Origin: a virus
Taxonomy: Duplodnaviria; Heunggongvirae; Uroviricota; Caudoviricetes
Direction: 5' to 3' (one strand)
Length of the DNA: 6,081 bases
Virus record (IMG/VR): IMGVR_UViG_2645727640_000005
Coordinates: 1 to 6,081 of that record
Part shown: positions 1 to 6,081 of the stretch, piece after piece
Numbering within the stretch: position 1 is the first letter of the stretch
Layout of the letters: every line of letters starts with the position of its first letter
Program-made: the position numbers and the translations under genes
Notes under the pieces: model-generated
The model's database searches: none
What the model was told of the DNA's origin: nothing
Seen by the model: only the letters and a program-made list of their open reading frames with translations

Positions 1-49
1 GCATGACAAAGTCATCGGGCATTATCTGAACATAAAACACTATCAATAA

Positions 50-136
50 GTTGGAGTCATTACCCGCCTTATCGACATACTTAATCAGCCAGGAGTCCCA
101 AAAAATGGATCAAACACTTATGGCTATCCAGACTAA
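50..136 (+). pseudogene. cIII: cIII 3' remnant (C-terminal ~23 codons of lambda-like CIII, no start codon in window)
   Basis: Frame-2 translation of 65..136 gives [23 protein letters not shown], matching the C-terminus of lambda CIII as I recall it. Upstream, the same frame has an in-frame TAA at 47..49 and no ATG, and no frame of 1..64 encodes the CIII N-terminus or amphipathic helix. The kil ATG sits at the cIII 3' end, as in lambda. Confidence 0.4.
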
Positions 137-248
137 ATTCACTATCGCCACTTTTATTGGCGATGAAAAGATGTTTCGTGAAGCCGTCGACGCTTATAAA
201 AAATGGATATTAATGCTGAAACTGAGATCAAGCAAAAGCATTCACTAA
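105..248 (+). CDS. kil: Kil, host cell-division (FtsZ) inhibitor, 47 aa
   Basis: ATG at 105 inside the 51..248 track ORF gives a 47-aa product ([12 protein letters not shown]...[10 protein letters not shown]), the length and sequence I recall for lambda Kil. It sits upstream of and overlaps gam, as in lambda. The track ORF's 5' extension begins at TTG and is probably not used. Confidence 0.8.
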
Positions 249-619
249 CCCCCTTTCCTGTTTTCCTAATCAGCCCGGCATTTCGCGGGCGATATTTTCA
301 CAGCTATTTCAGGAGTTCAGCCATGAACGCTTATTACATTCAGGATCGTCTTGAGGCTCAGAGCTGGGCGCGTCACTACCAGCAGATCGCCCGTGAAGAG
401 AAAGAGGCAGAACTGGCAGACGATATGGAAAAAGGCCTGCCCCAGCACCTGTTTGAATCGCTATGCATCGATCATTTGCAACGCCACGGGGCCAGCAAAA
501 AAGCCATTACCCGTGCGTTTGATGACGATGTTGAGTTTCAGGAGCGCATGGCAGAACACATCCGGTACATGGTTGAAACCATTGCTCACCATCAGGTTGA
601 TATTGATTCAGAGGTATAA
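203..619 (+). CDS. gam: Gam, RecBCD inhibitor (full-length GamL form, 138 aa)
   Basis: 138-aa ORF that matches lambda Gam along its whole length as recalled ([20 protein letters not shown]...[10 protein letters not shown]). An internal ATG at 323 preceded by AGGAG (311..315) corresponds to the short GamS start. Synteny is kil-gam-bet-exo. Confidence 0.95.
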
Positions 620-624
620 AACGG

Positions 625-1410
625 ATGAGTACAGCACTCGCAACGCTGGCAGGGAAGCTGGCTGAACGTGTCGGCATGGATTCTGTCGACCCACAGGAAC
701 TGATCACCACTCTTCGCCAGACGGCATTTAAAGGCGATGCCAGCGATGCGCAGTTCATCGCATTGTTGATCGTCGCCAACCAGTACGGCCTTAATCCGTG
801 GACGAAAGAAATTTACGCCTTCCCTGACAAGCAGAACGGCATCGTTCCGGTGGTGGGCGTTGATGGCTGGTCCCGCATCATCAACGAAAACCAGCAGTTT
901 GACGGCATGGACTTTGAACAGGACAACGAATCCTGCACATGCCGGATTTACCGCAAAGACCGCAATCATCCGATCTGCGTTACCGAGTGGATGGATGAAT
1001 GCCGCCGCGAACCATTCAAAACCCGCGAAGGCAGAGAAATCACCGGACCGTGGCAGTCGCATCCCAAACGGATGTTACGGCATAAAGCCATGATTCAGTG
1101 TGCCCGTCTGGCCTTCGGATTTGCTGGTATCTATGACAAGGATGAAGCCGAGCGCATTGTCGAAAATACTGCATACACTGCAGAACGTCAGCCGGAACGC
1201 GACATCACTCCGGTTAACGATGAAACCATGCAGGAGATTAACACTCTGCTGATCGCCCTGGATAAAACATGGGATGACGACTTATTGCCGCTCTGTTCCC
1301 AGATATTTCGCCGCGACATTCGCGCATCGTCAGAACTGACACAGGCCGAAGCAGTGAAAGCTCTTGGATTCCTGAAACAGAAAGCCACTGAGCAGAAGGT
1401 GGCAGCATGA
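625..1410 (+). CDS. bet: Bet (Red-beta) single-strand annealing protein, 261 aa
   Basis: 261-aa ORF matching lambda Bet as recalled ([35 protein letters not shown]...). GAGG at 611..614 lies upstream of the ATG. Its stop overlaps the exo start in an ATGA junction (1407..1410). Confidence 0.95.
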
Positions 1411-2087
1411 CACCGGACATTATCCTGCAGCGTACCGGGATCGACGTGAGAGCTGTCGAACAGGGGGATGATGCATGGCACAAATTACGGCTCGGCGTCA
1501 TCACCGCTTCAGAAGTTCACAACGTGATAGCAAAGCCCCGCTCAGGAAAAAAGTGGCCTGACATGAAAATGTCCTACTTCCACACCCTGCTGGCTGAGGT
1601 TTGCACCGGTGTGGCTCCGGAAGTTAATGCTAAGGCGCTGGCCTGGGGAAAACAGTACGAGAACGACGCCAGAACCCTGTTTGAATTCACTTCCGGCGTG
1701 AATGTTACTGAATCCCCGATCATCTATCGCGACGAAAGTATGCGCACCGCCTGCTCTCCCGATGGTTTATGCAGTGACGGCAACGGCCTTGAACTGAAAT
1801 GCCCGTTTACCTCCCGGGATTTCATGAAGTTCCGGCTCGGTGGTTTCGAGGCCATAAAATCAGCTTACATGGCCCAGGTGCAGTACAGCATGTGGGTGAC
1901 GCGAAAAGATGCCTGGTACTTTGCCAACTATGACCCGCGTATGAAGCGTGAAGGCCTGCATTATGTCGTGATTGAGCGGAATGAAAAGTACATGGCGAAT
2001 TTTGACGAGATGGTGCCGGAGTTCATCGAAAAAATGGACGTGGCACTGGCTGAAATTGGTTTTGTATTTGGGGAGCAATGGCGATGA
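1407..2087 (+). CDS. exo: Exo (Red-alpha) 5'-3' dsDNA exonuclease, 226 aa
   Basis: 226-aa ORF matching lambda exonuclease as recalled ([40 protein letters not shown]...GEQWR). ATGA overlap with bet, as in lambda. Confidence 0.95.
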
Positions 2088-2245
2088 AGCATCCTCACGA
2101 TAATATCCGGGTAGGCGCGATCACTTTCATCTACTCCGTTACAAAGCGAGGCTGGGTATTTCCCGGCCTTTCTGTTATCAGAAATCCACTGAAAGCACAG
2201 CGGCTGGCTGAGGCGATAAATAATAAACGGGGGCTGTATGACTGA
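2084..2245 (+). CDS. small ORF (53 aa) coupled to exo; positional equivalent of lambda orf60a, with a different 3' end
   Basis: ATG 2084..2086 overlaps the exo stop (ATGA). It translates to [53 protein letters not shown]. Lambda has orf60a in this position with the same 4-nt overlap. The ORF is shorter than 60 codons and its end overlaps the methyltransferase start, consistent with a mosaic junction near 2180..2240. It is below the size cutoff of the ORF track. Confidence 0.45.
2150..2176 (+). terminator. putative intrinsic terminator (tL3-like) downstream of exo
   Basis: Hairpin GGCTGGG (2150..2156), loop TATTT, CCCGGCC (2162..2168), seven pairs including one G-T wobble, followed by the T-rich run TTTCTGTT. 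Lambda is known to have tL3 shortly downstream of exo; identity with tL3 is from position only. Confidence 0.35.
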
Positions 2246-2795
2246 TTTCACCGGAAGCAATACTCCTGCCGAACATCGCGACAGCTGGCGCACACCACCA
2301 GAGATTTTTGCTGCGCTTAATGCAGAGTTCGTTTTTCAACTTGATGCTGCCGCCAGCGAAAAAAACCGACTATGTCGGCTTTTTATCTCACAGGAGCAGA
2401 ACACATTAACCACTTCATGGCCTGAAGCAATGGGATATGCCTCTGGTTATGTCTGGTTGAATCCACCATACAGCAATATTTCCCCTTTTGTGAAAAAGGC
2501 AGCCACTGAAAACAAATTCAGTAGTGTGGGATGTGTAATGTTATTGCCTGCTGACACATCTGTCGGATGGTTTCATGAAGCGATACAAACCGCCAGTGAG
2601 GTCAGATTCATCACGGCAGGACGACTGGCATTTATTAACCCACTCACGGAGAAACCCGTCAGTGGAAATAATAAAGGCTCGATGCTCATTATCTGGCACC
2701 CATACCCCCGTACACACTGCCACTTTACGACCGTTGATCGTGGAGAGTTGATGGCGTTCGGCTCAAGGATTCTTGCCCGTCGGGAGGCTGCATGA
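2238..2795 (+). CDS. orphan phage-type DNA N6-adenine methyltransferase (phage Dam family), 185 aa
   Basis: 185-aa ORF with an N-terminal WRTPPEIF motif, an FQLDAAAS motif and the catalytic NPPY tetrad (WLNPPYSN), the hallmark of the small phage Dam methyltransferase family. GGGGG lies 4 nt upstream of the ATG. No restriction endonuclease partner is visible in the window. Confidence 0.85.
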   Translation: MTDFTGSNTPAEHRDSWRTPPEIFAALNAEFVFQLDAAASEKNRLCRLFISQEQNTLTTSWPEAMGYASGYVWLNPPYSNISPFVKKAATENKFSSVGCVMLLPADTSVGWFHEAIQTASEVRFITAGRLAFINPLTEKPVSGNNKGSMLIIWHPYPRTHCHFTTVDRGELMAFGSRILARREAA

Positions 2796-2875
2796 CAACC
2801 ACGGAATGCATTTTTCTGGCAGCGGGCTTCATATTCTGTGTGCTTATGCTTGCCGATATGGGACTTGTTCAATGA
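2792..2875 (+). CDS. possible 27-aa hydrophobic peptide, start and stop both in ATGA overlaps
   Basis: ATG 2792..2794 overlaps the methyltransferase stop (TGA 2793..2795). The ORF encodes MTTTECIFLAAGFIFCVLMLADMGLVQ and its TGA (2873..2875) overlaps the ATG (2872..2874) of the next gene. The hydrophobic core could form one transmembrane helix. It is below the track cutoff and could be chance. Confidence 0.3.
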   Translation: MTTTECIFLAAGFIFCVLMLADMGLVQ

Positions 2876-3087
2876 CACCTCAGCAGGAAAACGCCCTTCG
2901 CAGCATTGCCCGTCAGGCTAATTCTGAAATCAAAAAAGCCAGACAGCAGTTTCCGGATAAAAACGTCGATGACATTTGCCGTAGCGTACTGAAGAAGCAC
3001 CGCGAAACGGTAACGCTGATGGGATTCACACCGACTCACTTAAGTCTGGCAATCGGTATGTTAAACGGCGTCTTTAAGGAACGGTGA
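2872..3087 (+). CDS. hypothetical protein, 71 aa
   Basis: Inside the 2773..3087 track ORF. ATG 2872 gives MTPQQENALRSIARQANSEIKKARQQ...GVFKER. An alternative ATG at 2806 would give 93 aa, and the track start at 2773 is TTG. No motif recognised. The start choice is uncertain. Confidence 0.5.
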   Translation: MTPQQENALRSIARQANSEIKKARQQFPDKNVDDICRSVLKKHRETVTLMGFTPTHLSLAIGMLNGVFKER

Positions 3088-3107
3088 ACATGAAAAGCAA
3101 AATCATC

Positions 3108-3133
3108 AGGGAGCTACAGGCTCCTTTTTTATT
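3108..3133 (+). terminator. putative intrinsic terminator or attenuator between genes
   Basis: GGAGC (3110..3114), loop TACAG, GCTCC (3120..3124), immediately followed by TTTTTT (3125..3130). The stem is short, 5 bp extendable to 7 with a G-T pair. It lies within a possible 29-aa ORF (3090..3179). Confidence 0.4.
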
Positions 3134-3185
3134 ATTCGCATTCACCCTCAAGCGTATTAACCAACAATTCAGGGATTAATGAAAG

Positions 3186-3407
3186 ATGGCAGATATCATT
3201 GATTCAGCATCAGAAATTGAAGAATTACAGCGCAATACAGCAATAAAAATGCGTCGCCTGAACTACCAGACTGTATCCGCAACTCATTGTTGTGAGTGTG
3301 GCGATCCGATAGATGAACGAAGACGCCTGGCAGTTCAGGGTTGTCGGACTTGTGCAAGTTGCCAGGAGGATCTGGAGCTTATCAGTAAACAGAGAGGTTC
3401 GAAGTGA
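3186..3407 (+). CDS. TraR/DksA-family C4 zinc-finger protein, 73 aa
   Basis: Cys at residues 35, 38, 56 and 59 give C-x2-C-x17-C-x2-C with a GDPIDERRR segment between the pairs, the pattern of the phage and plasmid TraR/DksA zinc-finger family. Its stop overlaps the GTG start of the next gene. Confidence 0.7.
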   Translation: MADIIDSASEIEELQRNTAIKMRRLNYQTVSATHCCECGDPIDERRRLAVQGCRTCASCQEDLELISKQRGSK

Positions 3408-4090
3408 GCGAAATTAATTATCAGGCACTGCGTGAAAAGGCAGAGAAAGCAACTAAAGGAAGCTACATCGTAGGGCATACATCTGTTAACCAGCACGGCA
3501 ATTTAACAGGAGTTTTTGTTTGCCAAAAATGGAAAGGAGAACCCGGTGGTGTGATTGCGGAATGTCATGTTAACTGCCTGGTTGAAACAGATGTTCAGGC
3601 TTATGCAAACGCTGAATTTATTGCTGCTTTTAATCCAAATGTTGCGCTGGCACTACTGGATGAACGGGAAAGAAACCAGCAATACATCAAACGCCGCGAC
3701 CAGGAGAACGAGGAGATTGCGCTTACGGTTGGGAAGCTGCGCGTTGAGCTGGAAGCCGCAGAGAAGCGCAACGCAAAATTACAAAGCGAGAATGCATACA
3801 TCCGCAACCGGTACAAAGAACTGGACCTGTTAATCGGGAAAAACATTCTGGTCATGCAGGCTGCCATTATCGAATGGCAATCGACTGGCGACGCTAAAAG
3901 CGGACTGGCATGGATTTATAACACACTGTTTGGCCCAGGCGAATTGCCGGACGAATCTGAGAAAGATGCTCAGGCCTACTTTAATCGCAAATATGCACCG
4001 ATTGACGAAAAGCTTATGGCGCTTCACAAGTGGTTTTGGGAACAAAGTGAAGCCAAGCGCGCCGCTGGCATTCGCATCAAAGGAGAGTGA
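3404..4090 (+). CDS. Ead/Ea22-like coiled-coil protein, 228 aa
   Basis: GTG start at 3404 with AGAGAGG 6 nt upstream. The N-terminus (INYQALREKAEKATKGS) and the NAEFIAAFNPNVALALLDE segment resemble the conserved motifs of prophage Ead/Ea22-like proteins as I recall them. The central region (LTVGKLRVELEAAEKRNAKLQSENAYIRNRYKELD) is a heptad-like coiled coil. Confidence 0.6.
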   Translation: MSEINYQALREKAEKATKGSYIVGHTSVNQHGNLTGVFVCQKWKGEPGGVIAECHVNCLVETDVQAYANAEFIAAFNPNVALALLDERERNQQYIKRRDQENEEIALTVGKLRVELEAAEKRNAKLQSENAYIRNRYKELDLLIGKNILVMQAAIIEWQSTGDAKSGLAWIYNTLFGPGELPDESEKDAQAYFNRKYAPIDEKLMALHKWFWEQSEAKRAAGIRIKGE

Positions 4091-4091
4091 G

Positions 4092-4607
4092 ATGGCGTTA
4101 ACACACCGAGAACTCTGTCAGATTGCGTACAAGTTCCTTAAGCGCAACGGGTTCAAGGTTTGCTTTCATGACCGCTTTATAGCCGTAACCAGTACCGGAG
4201 AACAGCCAGATGCTATGGGATTCAGAAATTCAGCATCATGCCTGATAGAGGCGAAATGTTCTCGTGCTGACTTGTTGGCAGATAGAAAAAAGCGTTTTCG
4301 TAAAAATCCGTCTCTTGGAATGGGAGACTGGCGATTCTTTATTAGTGAGCCGGGAACTATTTCAATTGAGGATTTACCACCTGGCTGGGGATTACTTCAC
4401 GTTGTTAACGGAAGAGTACGGAAAGTACATGGATGGCCCAAGGGGAATTGCTGTTGGGGTAACCCTGAGGATAAACCTTTTATTGGGAATAAGCAGGTTG
4501 AATGCGATTACATGTTGTCTGCCTTAAGGCGCATGGAGTTGAGAGGGCACCTTAATGAAATATATGACGGTGTAATTGTTAATAAGAAAGAAGGAAACGC
4601 GGCATGA
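4092..4607 (+). CDS. hypothetical protein with PD-(D/E)xK nuclease-like motif, 171 aa
   Basis: ATG 4092 with GGAG 6 nt upstream. The track ORF 3930..4607 extends 5' in another frame of the upstream gene and is not used. The N-terminal 60 aa have a helix, two strands, PD at residue 40 and hhEAK at 53-55 (FIAVTSTGEQPD...SCLIEAK), the canonical PD-(D/E)xK arrangement. The C-terminal 100 aa are Trp/Cys-rich (GNCCWGNPED, VECDY) and not recognised. A nuclease function is inferred from the motif only. Confidence 0.55.
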   Translation: MALTHRELCQIAYKFLKRNGFKVCFHDRFIAVTSTGEQPDAMGFRNSASCLIEAKCSRADLLADRKKRFRKNPSLGMGDWRFFISEPGTISIEDLPPGWGLLHVVNGRVRKVHGWPKGNCCWGNPEDKPFIGNKQVECDYMLSALRRMELRGHLNEIYDGVIVNKKEGNAA

Positions 4608-5491
4608 TCACTATTACCAAAGGGCGACTGCTGACAATCAAACAGTGGCGCGAAACATACGGACCTGGTAGCAACGTTGTACTGCCAGCAGAAGAAGCGG
4701 AAGAACTGGCACGAATTGCTCTGGCAGCGCTGGAAGCCGAGCCGATAGGTTTCCGTTGCAGGCGCAATGATAACCTTGGTGATTGGAGTTACGTATATCA
4801 TCGAGAGCCAGATGATTTTGAGCGCAAACATTTAGTGATAGAGGGCATTTACGCCGCCCCTCCAGCACCAGTAGTACCGGAAGAAAAACCAATGCCTAAT
4901 CCTCTTAGCATGTACGCGGTTGATGCTGTTGCCGCTATTGCAGAGGTGAGAGGCTGGAACGCCTGCCGTGCCGCTATGCTTCAGTCCGGAAACTTTCGGG
5001 AAAACAAGAATTCGTCAACCAATAATTTTCGGGAAATCGCGGAAACGTCAACCAACTATCCGGTAATTCCTAGTGAGGTGTTGTCCGCAATCCTGAAGGT
5101 TGCCAAGATTCGTGCCGATGTCGATGATTTTGACGGTGACAGGCGAGGTATCGGTGATTGTCTGGATGAGGCTGAGCAAGAGCTTATCGTTACCATTAAC
5201 AAATATGCCAGTCAGTTGGCAGCAGAACCTATAGCGCCTAATGACGTTCGAGAGCAGACAGCCATTCCACAAGTTCCGGTGACTCCGGATGGTTGGATAA
5301 GCTGTAGTGAGCGAATGCCGAATACCAAAACAGCCGTTCTTGTTGCCGTGGAGTTTGACAGGAAAGGTGACTGGCGAATGAAATGGGCTACTTACATCCC
5401 GGGGCATCCTGACGCTAATGATGGGTGGATAATTCCTGGTGCGTCGTGGAAACCGTCACACTGGATGCCGCTACCAGAGCCTCCACTTTGA
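4604..5491 (+). CDS. DUF551-type prophage protein, 295 aa, with internal tandem repeat
   Basis: ATG 4604 overlaps the upstream stop (ATGA) and AAGGAA lies 7 nt upstream. The C-terminal ~70 aa (WISCSERMPNTKTAVLVAVEF...GWIIPGASWKPSHWMPLPEPP) match the DUF551 signature of prophage proteins as I recall it. The N-terminal half is acidic and helical. Confidence 0.75.
   Translation: MITITKGRLLTIKQWRETYGPGSNVVLPAEEAEELARIALAALEAEPIGFRCRRNDNLGDWSYVYHREPDDFERKHLVIEGIYAAPPAPVVPEEKPMPNPLSMYAVDAVAAIAEVRGWNACRAAMLQSGNFRENKNSSTNNFREIAETSTNYPVIPSEVLSAILKVAKIRADVDDFDGDRRGIGDCLDEAEQELIVTINKYASQLAAEPIAPNDVREQTAIPQVPVTPDGWISCSERMPNTKTAVLVAVEFDRKGDWRMKWATYIPGHPDANDGWIIPGASWKPSHWMPLPEPPL
4991..5056 (+). repeat. 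imperfect 33-bp tandem direct repeat (2 copies) in frame within the DUF551 gene
   Basis: Copy 1 (4991..5023) AACTTTCGGGAAAACAAGAATTCGTCAACCAAT and copy 2 (5024..5056) AATTTTCGGGAAATCGCGGAAACGTCAACCAAC match at 25 of 33 positions. They encode NFRENKNSSTN and NFREIAETSTN. Confidence 0.8.
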
Positions 5492-5587
5492 AAGCGAAGC
5501 TTATACATATCTTTTACATCAGCAATCTATTGTTAATCTCCAATCAATGTTACGTTGTCATCTCACTCATGCTTTGGAGTTAGTGAT

Positions 5588-5767
5588 ATGTCTTGTCCAA
5601 AATGCGGTTCTGGAAATATTGCAAAAGAAAAAACAATGCGTGGATGGTCTGGTGATTATGTGTGCTGCGATTGCGGATACAACGACTCTAAAGACGCATT
5701 TGGAGAGCGTGGTAAAAACGAGTTTGTCAAAATTAATAAAGAACGCGAAGGCAACGAAAAAAGCTAA
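5588..5767 (+). CDS. small zinc-ribbon protein, 59 aa
   Basis: ATG 5588 with GGAG (5575..5578) upstream. The track start at 5555 is TTG. Cys at residues 3, 6, 26 and 29 give C-x2-C-x19-C-x2-C, and the C-terminus is Lys/Glu-rich. Codon usage is AT-rich. It is followed by a terminator and sits immediately upstream of xis, in the position of lambda's small unnamed ORF and ea8.5. Confidence 0.55.
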   Translation: MSCPKCGSGNIAKEKTMRGWSGDYVCCDCGYNDSKDAFGERGKNEFVKINKEREGNEKS

Positions 5768-5830
5768 TTTATTATTCATATATGAAAACAATGTAACCAA
5801 TATTCGAATTGAAGAACTGAAAGAACACCA

Positions 5831-5852
5831 AGCCGCCTGATGGCGGTTTTTT
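5831..5852 (+). terminator. putative intrinsic terminator upstream of xis
   Basis: CCGCC (5833..5837), loop TGAT, GGCGG (5842..5846), extendable by A-T and G-T pairs, followed by TTTTTT (5847..5852). Confidence 0.5.
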
Positions 5853-5879
5853 CTTGCGTGTAATTGCGGAGACTTTGCG

Positions 5880-6081
5880 ATGTACTTGACACTTCAGGAG
5901 TGGAACGCTCGCCAGCGACGCCCAAGAAGCCTTGAAACAGTTCGTCGATGGGTGCGCGAATGCAGGATATTCCCTCCTCCGGTTAAGGATGGCAGAGAGT
6001 ATCTGTTCCACGAATCAGCGGTAAAGGTTGACTTAAATCGACCAGTAACAGGTAGCCTTTTGAAGAGGATCAGAAATGGGA
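5880..6081 (+). CDS. xis: Xis excisionase, 5' partial (first 67 codons; runs off window end)
   Basis: ATG 5880 with GGAG 8 nt upstream. Translation MYLTLQEWNARQRRPRSLETVRRWVRECRIFPPPVKDGREYLFHESAVKVDLNRPVTGSLLKRIRNG matches lambda Xis (72 aa) as recalled. It is absent from the ORF track because no stop lies within the window. Confidence 0.9.
   Translation, partial: MYLTLQEWNARQRRPRSLETVRRWVRECRIFPPPVKDGREYLFHESAVKVDLNRPVTGSLLKRIRNG

Follow-up and report, generated by a model that had tools for sequence, protein, structure and literature searches.

The window, that is, the whole 6,081-nt stretch of DNA analyzed here, belongs to a lambdoid E. coli prophage and is its early-left (pL) operon. 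Its orientation is that of transcription from pL, and all of its features described below lie on the + strand. The lambda reference for all break points and identities was NC_001416 (blastn); further break-point comparisons were made with PhiR30_1, Stx2 phage 86, LC727891, LC727904 and three E. coli prophages. The window opens with the terminal 64 bp of an IS1 element (1–64), including the transposase stop codon (47–49) and the end of the element at 64. IS1A copies that match this stretch are found in 5,054 genomes, at many places in the chromosome, and in one matching sequence (L018), the CDS of the IS1 transposase stops after 49 nt of the match. The element has inserted into cIII of the prophage, at a position equivalent to lambda 33370, and all phage relatives begin matching at base 65.

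From there, the window is homologous to lambda up to position 2240 (65–2240; 97.5% identity over 2,177 nt, with one gap, to lambda 33370–31194, and 93–100% for each 100 nt). This part comprises the 3' remnant of cIII, kil (105–248), gam (203–619), bet (625–1410), exo (1407–2087) and an orf60a-like ORF. Homology resumes at 2792–3452 (96.2% over 662 nt, with one gap, to lambda 31008–30347), where the orf61 region, a 31-codon ORF, orf73 and the first codons of ea22 follow each other in the same order as in lambda. Further pieces of ea22 match lambda at 3642–3760 (90%) and 4063–4093 (100%). The last homologous block, at 5793–6081 (97.6% to lambda 29165–28877), contains the 3' end of lambda orf55, a terminator-like hairpin (5830–5849), a cII-type TTGC-N6-TTGC box and xis (PF07825, E = 1.5e-38), which begins at 5880 and runs off the end of the window.

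A preliminary description, which had singled out the interval 2084–3185, recognized lambda-like sequence through exo and the first part of orf60a and again at xis, in agreement with these alignments, but it took the genes in between for genes that lambda does not have. This is correct for 2241–2791 and 4094–5792, but not for 2792–3452: within the interval, 394 of the 1,102 bases (2792–3185) are lambda genes in lambda order, and since lambda itself carries these genes at this position, the claim falls for that part. Of the genes thought to have been exchanged together, orf63 and ea8.5 are indeed gone, but orf61 is retained, along with orf73 (96% identity), and ea22 is a chimera. The mosaic junction is present but far smaller than first described.

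The orf63 slot and its surroundings

The sole non-lambda DNA in 2084–3185 is a 551-nt cassette (2241–2791) that has no blastn match to lambda and stands for the 185-nt interior of lambda orf63 (lambda 31193–31009). Base-level alignments place the joints at 2240/2241 on the left and 2791/2792 on the right, and the flanks are 96–100% identical to lambda for each 100 nt right up to both joints. Between them, a global alignment of the cassette with the orf63 interior scores –722, which is no improvement on shuffled sequence (–717 ± 11). The break points are far beyond chance. On the left, the Shine-Dalgarno sequence and ATG of orf63 are kept, and 2240 is the last base in common with lambda; on the right, the ATGA that holds the orf63 stop codon is kept, and 2792 is the first base in common. 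In other words, orf63 is swapped exactly from start to stop codon for the gene of a Dam-family methyltransferase, a structure that is essentially certain. No orf63 (DUF1382) profile match was found among the ORFs scanned in 2078–6080, nor was there any nucleotide similarity. The order of the exo-xis region is kept as in lambda: orf60a, the slot, orf61, orf73 and ea22. Lambda and Stx phages alike have orf63 in this slot. The earlier placement of the left junction, at roughly 2180–2240, thus had the joint at its upper edge, and the alignment bears out the proposed lambdoid module exchange, with the methyltransferase as the incoming gene and the left joint at its overlap with orf60a.

In lambda, the three ORFs overlap, by 28 nt between orf60a and orf63 and by 20 nt between orf63 and orf61, and the swap therefore leaves Orf60a with a new and shorter C-terminus and Orf61 without its first codons. 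The orf60a-like ORF (DUF1317; 2084–2245; PF07026, E = 5e-32, profile positions 1–50 of 60) lies directly 3' of exo and has 97% nucleotide identity to lambda up to 2240. It encodes 53 aa from the lambda-equivalent ATG at 2084, or 55 aa from an ATG at 2078, compared to 60 in lambda. Its C-terminus, ...RGAVCTKHLLLS in lambda, is here ...RGLYD, because of a 1-nt deletion at about 2229 and the foreign sequence after 2240. Both the shortening from 60 to 53 codons and the overlap with the methyltransferase start had been noticed previously; the stop codon is at 2243–2245 and the methyltransferase ATG at 2238, an overlap of 8 nt.

On the other side of the slot, a putative hydrophobic ORF of 27 codons (2792–2875; MTTTECIFLAAGFIFCVLMLADMGLVQ), read from the sequence and found in identical form in lambda (L001 3426–3509, minus strand), is ATGA-coupled both to the methyltransferase stop codon and to the ATG at 2872. 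The orf61-like ORF (2872–3087; 71 aa as NCBI calls it; phrog_303, E = 7e-43; phrog_26061, E = 3e-37) is annotated as WP_000188870.1 in relatives, and its frame is open from 2773, with an additional ATG at 2806. The codons for the N-terminus of lambda orf61 sat inside orf63 and are lost here; an A-run in lambda orf61 is one A longer, and lambda orf61 is frameshifted with respect to the ORF in the window. There follows a 31-codon ORF, identical to one in lambda (3084–3179), which contains a terminator-like hairpin (3108–3126). Ribosome profiling reports a 31-aa peptide from this region of lambda (PMC8614690), and judging from its length and position, we infer that it is the product of the same ORF. 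Next comes orf73 (3186–3407; PF01258, E = 2e-9; phrog_54, E = 6e-26), the name used in the exo-xis literature (PMC8614690) for a TraR/DksA-type C4 zinc-finger protein. (An intact 73-aa homologue is present in lambda at 30392–30613, without annotation in NC_001416.) The Ea22-like protein (228 aa; 3404–4090; PF13935, E = 5e-35) is a chimera relative to lambda ea22, with lambda-like sequence at 3404–3452, 3642–3760 and 4063–4090 by blastn.

A second non-lambda block (4094–5792), likewise without a blastn match to lambda, replaces the lambda ea8.5 region (29166–29843). It encodes a 171-aa protein with no assigned family (4092–4607), for which a PDB sequence search returned no meaningful match, a 295-aa protein matching the DUF551 family (4604–5491) and a 59-aa zinc-ribbon protein (5588–5767), for which the name "Eag" is taken from L010. 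The block is 97–99.8% identical to the Stx phages LC727891 and LC727904. Among relatives, the two blocks assort independently: the Stx1a phage LC727891 combines this right-hand block with orf63, and in phage PhiR30_1, as in prophages such as that of strain 2013C-3264, another right-hand block accompanies the methyltransferase. Conserved lambda sequence separates the replacements, of which there are at least two, independent of one another.

The greater AT-richness previously seen by eye from about 3100 onward is real but slight (46.5% GC in 3100–6081 versus 49.9% in 1–3099), and the cassette itself has 48.6% GC, with flanks of 50.9% and 45.4%. It does not mark acquired DNA, since it is located in lambda-homologous sequence and is also found in lambda, where the exo-xis region is no less AT-rich than that of the window and has 45.3% GC versus 51.1% in gam-exo. 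Base composition therefore gives no support to the notion of horizontally acquired cargo with which the AT-richness had been connected, and as a marker of the acquired block it was rejected as uninformative.

A Dam-family methyltransferase

The gene in the slot (2238–2795) uses the ribosome-binding site and ATG that serve orf63 in lambda and encodes a 185-aa phage N6-adenine DNA methyltransferase of the Dam family (PF05869, E = 2e-56). The PF05869 match scores 190.5 bits against a cut-off of 28.1 and covers profile positions 1–168 of 169; that to the equivalog TIGR01712 scores 165.6 bits against 97.05 and covers positions 3–165 of 165, and phrog_111 is also matched (E = 1.5e-77). The catalytic motif IV, (D/N)PPY, is intact, as W73-L-N75-P-P-Y78-S79 (window 2454–2474), with NPPY at residues 75–78. 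Three motifs, D-x-W-x-TP, LDxxA and W-x-NPPYS, are invariant relative to the VT2-type Dam homologue of an Stx2 phage, HP1 orf13 and a T1-like Dam, and residues D15, W17, T19, P20, L35, D36 and A39 are invariant across five aligned sequences. The first two of these motifs are N-terminal and presumably belong to the cofactor or target-base pocket. A PDB sequence search with the methyltransferase gave no meaningful match and no solved structure detectable by sequence. Its best match in PADLOC is an orphan methyltransferase (E = 8e-32), and neither PADLOC nor the profile searches found a nuclease family match adjoining it. The enzyme is predicted to be an orphan, lacking a cognate restriction endonuclease.

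What does the enzyme recognize? The Dam proteins of T1 and HP1 methylate adenine N6 in GATC. M.EcoVT2Dam is reported to target GATC (PMC6602927). With these small phage enzymes, the protein shares the family (PF05869/TIGR01712), the length class, the motifs and the orphan status, but it is only 36–47% identical to their homologues. The closest homologue of a characterized enzyme, the VT2-type Dam in the Stx2 phage, reaches only 47% identity, and specificity can shift with small changes. On balance, the target is probably GATC, by analogy with M.EcoVT2Dam, T1 Dam and HP1 Dam. The enzyme would methylate adenine N6 in phage and host DNA, using S-adenosylmethionine, and might keep fast-replicating phage DNA fully modified, although any such biological pay-off is a more tentative proposition than the target. 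Since the host, E. coli, has a Dam of its own, it is not obvious why a GATC enzyme would be needed. The location is also different: in Stx phages and phage 434, the methyltransferase homologues sit in the replication/nin region to the right of immunity, whereas here the gene is in the exo-xis region.

Distribution and relatives

According to the literature, the exo-xis region consists of a conserved block (orf60a, orf63, orf61, orf73 and ea22), transcribed from pL at an early stage, and of a variable part after it (PMC8614690, PMC10869804, PMC3824215). The region in the window resembles that of lambda in lying between exo and xis of the pL operon, in having orf60a, orf61, the 31-codon ORF and orf73 in the same order at 96–97.5% nucleotide identity, and in the Ea22-family gene that comes next, ahead of variable genes before xis. 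It differs in having the methyltransferase instead of orf63, in a block that the literature calls "largely invariant," and in the C-terminus of Orf60a and the N-terminus of Orf61. The word "methyltransferase" is absent from PMC8614690 and PMC10869804 and occurs in PMC3824215 only in the reference list. Nothing was found in the literature on the protein accessions or on phage PhiR30_1.

The methyltransferase allele is present in 244 of 5,426 complete E. coli genomes, compared to 2,901 for the orf63 allele; about one in twelve E. coli genomes carrying the region have a Dam-family methyltransferase in place of orf63. The 244 complete genomes contradict an assembly chimera at the joint. An identical protein is found on at least 1,000 contigs under the NCBI name "phage N-6-adenine-methyltransferase," and the same joint occurs with three integration modules (argU, thrW and lambda-type). 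Phage PhiR30_1 (PV340558), which is 99.1% identical over the whole of 2084–3185, and the DLP12-type/argU prophages with WP_000129285.1 have an identical methyltransferase protein and both joints as in the window; between gam and orf73 (window 65 or 242 to 3381), their nucleotide identity to it is 98.7–99.1%. On the 3' side of orf73, however, they have a DUF4222 gene and then the argU or thrW integrase, and they lack the Ea22, 171-aa, DUF551 and Eag genes as well as the lambda xis of the window. The left part of the window (65–3381, methyltransferase included) is 98.7% identical to DLP12-type prophages, and exo-xis regions of Stx phages match the right part (about 2792 to 5856) with 97–99.8% identity. 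By these matches, the lineage of the window is a recombinant, with a crossover within the common orf61–orf73 homology. Farther afield, a methyltransferase domain that is 73% identical occurs in the temperate Enterobacter phage CobraSix, at the corresponding place in its exo-xis region.

Three other candidate arrangements were rejected. An apparent second location beside the replication gene P, in BL21-type strains, is the same slot, a deletion in the defective DLP12 having fused ren/P to mid-gene. The partial match in FDAARGOS_944 is a deletion remnant and not a third allele. In FELIX_MS508, the dam gene after exo is not a natural allele but a host-type dam of 278 aa, in an apparently engineered Red cassette with a kanamycin-resistance gene beside it.

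Origin, expression and possible role

Mosaic exchange of modules at gene boundaries is the general model of lambdoid phage evolution put forward by Hendrix, Casjens and colleagues. The window shows no material difference from it: identity of about 97% drops sharply to no similarity exactly at the start and stop codons, and unrelated alternative genes occupy one slot between conserved flanks. By analogy with other lambdoid mosaics, the joint may have arisen by rare illegitimate or micro-homology recombination between phages, would have survived because translational coupling was preserved, and would now spread through homologous recombination in the conserved flanks. Taken as a whole, a lambdoid operon with an allele swap in the orf63 slot and a Dam-type enzyme expressed from pL is very probably the right explanation. 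Could a single contiguous foreign module instead have replaced orf63, orf61, ea22 and ea8.5 between orf60a and xis? The end of lambda homology at 2240, its presence at xis and the true absence of orf63 and ea8.5 would fit, but such a module is refuted by the alignment and scarcely credible given the 96.2% identity to lambda at 2792–3452, with orf61, the 31-codon ORF, orf73 and the ea22 start, the two additional lambda-like pieces of ea22, and the fact that the two non-lambda blocks are found apart in relatives. The direction of the exchange is another matter, since "replacement of orf63" denotes a difference from lambda and not a proven direction. The methyltransferase allele could be ancestral and orf63 the incomer, or both could have replaced a third gene. 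Members of the methyltransferase clade are found within exo-xis regions of distant temperate Enterobacter phages, Orf63 is reported as confined to lambda-type temperate phages (PMC10869804), and SNPs within the final 130 nt of orf60a show linkage to the allele. On the other hand, orf63 is about twelve times more common in E. coli, although frequency is not polarity. An ancestral methyltransferase or a lost third gene is a serious possibility but the less likely one.

As an allele in the orf63 slot, the methyltransferase would have no promoter of its own and would be transcribed from pL along with the Red genes after induction or infection. Consensus scans, which are weak evidence, found no sigma-70-like site on the + strand from 1 to 3500, no promoter-like site on it before 3503 and no terminator-like site at the cassette ends, including 2795–2870. 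The alternative that the gene is a moron, an autonomous insert that brings its own promoter and terminator and is expressed while the prophage is repressed, for the benefit of the host, would suit an accessory gene found in a minority of related prophages, and the upstream IS1 might make independent expression useful. However, apart from the missing promoter- and terminator-like sites, the gene order is not extended, the ORF substitutes for orf63 from ATG to stop, uses its ribosome-binding site and overlaps both neighbors, and the moron model, which we consider very unlikely, was rejected. Even less probable is that the enzyme is the modification half of a restriction–modification pair with the 171-aa protein as the nuclease. 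That protein has no assigned family and contains, by eye, a D...E-x-K-like pattern (PDAMGF...IEAKC), but 1.3 kb containing four ORFs separates the two genes, and PADLOC places the enzyme among orphan methyltransferases and gives no match for the 171-aa protein. Moreover, the 171-aa gene is missing from PhiR30_1, 2013C-3264 and BL21-type prophages, all of which do have the methyltransferase, while the Stx1a phage LC727891 has the DNA of that gene without the methyltransferase, and the pairing was rejected on account of this independent assortment.

Why would a methyltransferase reside behind gam, bet and exo in one transcript? One functional reason, which we regard as improbable, might be that a Dam-type enzyme aids Red by transiently blinding mismatch repair: if GATC were methylated in a burst while Red is being expressed, MutH would find no hemimethylated GATC, and diverged (homeologous) phage DNA would become open to recombination by Beta and Exo. 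The artificial counterpart would be the engineered beta+dam "TM-MAGE" plasmid (PMC4770203). This idea is drawn only from the gene position, the GATC specificity of the family and the similar Red-plus-methyltransferase arrangement in CobraSix. If it were true, the methyltransferase allele would make its phages recombine more readily with diverged relatives than those bearing orf63 do, and would so leave them more mosaic.

The swap itself is ordinary gene shuffling between related phages, of a kind already known, and is annotated in hundreds of E. coli genomes; its overall importance is small. It corrects the gene map, in that one gene is exchanged at the slot and not the whole exo-xis cargo, and it means that orf63 is not invariant, although the exo-xis literature has it in the conserved block, with a pro-lytic role. 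A natural allele that is orf63-null and methyltransferase-positive may be of help for comparison, either in studies of Orf63 or where the exo-xis region is used as a marker. By re-tailing Orf60a and re-heading Orf61, the start-to-stop swap also makes a tidy teaching example of mosaicism at gene boundaries. In this particular prophage, the IS1 element upstream, in cIII, could lower expression driven from pL, and its presence suggests that the prophage may be decaying.

The exchanged gene and its joints

Alignment of lambda (NC_001416, 27500-34000) to the window yields five matching pieces: window 65-2240 with lambda 33370-31194 (97.5% identity), 2792-3452 with 31008-30347 (96.2%), 3642-3760 with 30289-30171 (89.9%), 4063-4093 with 29874-29844 (100%) and 5793-6081 with 29165-28877 (97.6%). 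Of the 2084-3185 flagged in the preliminary description, only 2241-2791, half of that interval, is missing a lambda counterpart, so the extent of the exchange was overstated. The lambda match ends sharply at both joints, with 96-100% identity per 100 nt right up to them, and the 551-nt interior, aligned to the 185 nt inside lambda orf63, scores -722, no higher than shuffled sequence (-717 +/- 11). Flanks of such high identity around an interior at shuffle level mean that the junction is real and sharp.

What was exchanged? With the joint marked by a slash, the left side reads ...AATAAACGAGGGGCTGTATG/CACAAAGC in lambda and ...AATAAACG-GGGGCTGTATG/ACTGATTT in the window. The last common base is the G of an ATG (2240) that starts orf63 in lambda and the methyltransferase in the window, and the purine-rich ribosome-binding site before it is common to both. 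On the right, lambda reads ...CCAGGT/ATGACAACC and the window ...GGCTGC/ATGACAACC, and the common TGA at 2793-2795 is the stop of both genes. Since start and stop are shared, the cassette substitutes for orf63 from start codon to stop codon. In lambda, orf60a and orf63 overlap by 28 nt, and orf63 and orf61 by 20 nt. The swap deprives Orf61 of the six codons with which it begins in lambda. Together with a 1-nt deletion at about 2229, it also gives Orf60a, which ends in ...RGAVCTKHLLLS in lambda (60 aa), the new tail ...RGLYD (53 aa), explaining the 53 codons correctly noticed earlier.

Base composition, which had been offered in support of acquisition, gives none: GC content is 48.6% in the cassette, 50.9% in the left flank (65-2240) and 45.4% in the right (2792-3452). 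The AT-richness beyond about 3100 is real (46.5% GC in 3100-6081 against 49.9% in 1-3099), but it is a regional property rather than a mark of exchange, lambda itself having 45.3% GC in exo-xis and 51.1% in gam-exo.

The operon and its retained lambda genes

ORF listing and family scans identify the window as a lambdoid early-left operon on the + strand: kil (105-248), gam (203-619), bet (625-1410), exo (1407-2087), a DUF1317/orf60a-like ORF (2084-2245), the 185-aa Dam-family methyltransferase (2238-2795), an orf61-like ORF ending at 3087, a 31-codon ORF (3084-3179), genes for a TraR-type zinc-finger protein (3186-3407), an Ea22-family protein (3404-4090), a 171-aa protein with no assigned function (4092-4607), a DUF551 protein (4604-5491) and a 59-aa zinc-ribbon protein (5588-5767), then a hairpin with a T-run (5830-5849) and xis, from 5880. 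ATGA or GTGA overlaps join most adjacent ORFs, as expected for a single translationally coupled operon. Positions 1-64 are the end of an IS1 element, with the transposase stop codon at 47-49 and the IS1 boundary at 64; the insertion interrupts cIII of the prophage at the position matching lambda 33370. Just the final 23 codons of cIII are left, without a preceding start codon, so the prophage has no intact cIII. Transcripts from pL have to pass through IS1 before they arrive at the Red genes and the methyltransferase.

Contrary to the preliminary description, orf61 is retained, as a 71/93/104-codon frame, and ea22 is present as a chimera; the loss of ea8.5 is borne out by a second non-lambda block at 4094-5792. 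An A-run at 2928-2940 is A7 in lambda orf61 and A6 in the window, Stx2 phage 86 and Escherichia phage PhiR30_1, and this one extra A puts lambda orf61 out of frame relative to the other three. The 61-aa Orf61 of lambda (locus L001, 3340-3525, minus strand) is thus a truncated, frameshifted version of the longer ORF (71-104 codons, ending in ...GMLNGVFKER) that those three conserve. A strongly hydrophobic 27-codon candidate ORF (2792-2875, MTTTECIFLAAGFIFCVLMLADMGLVQ) overlaps the orf61 frame, has ATGA coupling at each end and is identical in lambda.

The 31-codon ORF also has an identical copy in lambda. The TraR-like ORF is lambda orf73, a name already in use (PMC8614690), and is intact at lambda 30392-30613 (L001 2893-3114, minus strand). 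NC_001416 has no orf73 annotation despite this intact TraR/DksA-like ORF, so that the 443 bp from orf61 to ea22 look empty of genes in the reference record.

Distribution and recombinant origin

The cassette is found at ≥99% identity and at the same joint in 244 of the 5,426 complete E. coli genomes; the orf63 allele occurs in 2,901. Partial matches occur in a further 68, and those looked at were a copy truncated at its 5' end, in defective DLP12 prophages of B/BL21-type strains, and a single remnant of a deletion. The DLP12 copy, seen at loci L004 (3003-3371, E. coli BL21) and L005 (strain H1827/12), keeps the 3' two-thirds of the gene, joined through a deletion to either ren or replication gene P. 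Of the 180 phage records that match 2084-3185, PhiR30_1 alone has the methyltransferase. At least 1000 contigs carry the exact protein, which NCBI calls "phage N-6-adenine-methyltransferase". Strain FELIX_MS508 (L015 1528-2364) differs: a 278-aa dam of host type lies between its exo and DUF1317 genes, near an aminoglycoside phosphotransferase gene. This has the look of a Red/dam cassette built for recombineering and not of a natural phage allele.

Databases already contain the gene, the joint and the phenomenon, and the exchange is ordinary lambdoid mosaicism that has been annotated before. The exo-xis papers PMC8614690, PMC10869804 and PMC3824215 treat the series orf60a-orf63-orf61-orf73-ea22 as conserved and largely invariant, with the variable part after it, assign Orf63 a pro-lytic, non-essential role and make no mention of the methyltransferase allele, which is the sole mildly new angle.

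The two non-lambda blocks are independent of each other. The second is 97-99.8% identical to Stx phages, and Stx1a phage LC727891 shows ~97% identity to the window over 65-2240 and 2790-5280, with a 183-nt orf63 allele in the slot between orf60a and orf61. Matches of ~98.7% that include the methyltransferase come from a prophage of strain 2013C-3264 (65-3381) and from PhiR30_1 (242-3381, diverging at about 3372-3381); in both, a DUF4222 gene and an argU integrase come next. The window is a recombinant of LC727891-like and 2013C-3264/PhiR30_1-like kinds, and the crossover falls within the orf61-orf73 stretch that they share. None of the 5,426 complete E. coli genomes has the whole window, the best match covering 88%.

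In the second block, the 171-aa protein, common to the window and Stx1 phages, has no match in Pfam, NCBIfam, PADLOC or PDB sequences and matches only phrog_9263 and phrog_631, neither with an assigned function; its pattern PDAMGF...CLIEAKC is reminiscent of a PD-(D/E)xK nuclease core. The 59-aa protein is called "Eag protein" in relatives and has a sub-threshold match to the Pfam restriction-alleviation protein Lar (23.4 bits, cut-off 28.6). Ahead of this block, the C-terminal half of the Ea22-like protein (residues 116-216, window 3749-4051) matches PADLOC model PDLC02890, "DpdH" (E=1e-36, profile positions 12-112 of 127), unexpectedly tying an exo-xis protein to a model that is listed with the Dpd system of DNA-modification defence; this may reflect the way PDLC02890 was built.

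The methyltransferase

The incoming gene is indeed a methyltransferase: its product scores above the curated cut-offs of PF05869 and TIGR01712 along the entire length of the profiles and matches PADLOC orphan-methyltransferase models. The motifs D-x-W-x-TP, LDxxA and W-x-NPPYS are kept and are invariant in an alignment with the methyltransferase domain of Enterobacter phage CobraSix, the VT2-type Dam homologue of an Stx2 phage, HP1 orf13 and a T1-like Dam. T1 Dam and HP1 Dam target GATC. This is also the target of M.EcoVT2Dam (PMC6602927), and with identities of 36-47% it is the best guess for the window enzyme.

Unlike the window gene, the homologues of Stx phages and phage 434 (47%) are sited in the replication/nin region. 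The nearest relatives outside E. coli are in Enterobacter and Erwinia phages (62-75% amino-acid identity). In the temperate phage CobraSix (L006 1633-3546), the closest annotated of these (73%), the domain ends a 637-aa protein, after 450 N-terminal residues, in the same RecT-exo...xis-int neighbourhood.

No promoter-like site is seen ahead of the methyltransferase gene on the + strand and no terminator-like site after it, so expression from pL along with the Red genes is the natural reading. An engineered beta+dam system blunts mismatch repair (PMC4770203), and there is a small chance that a Dam-type enzyme encoded on one transcript with Red would do likewise during recombination.
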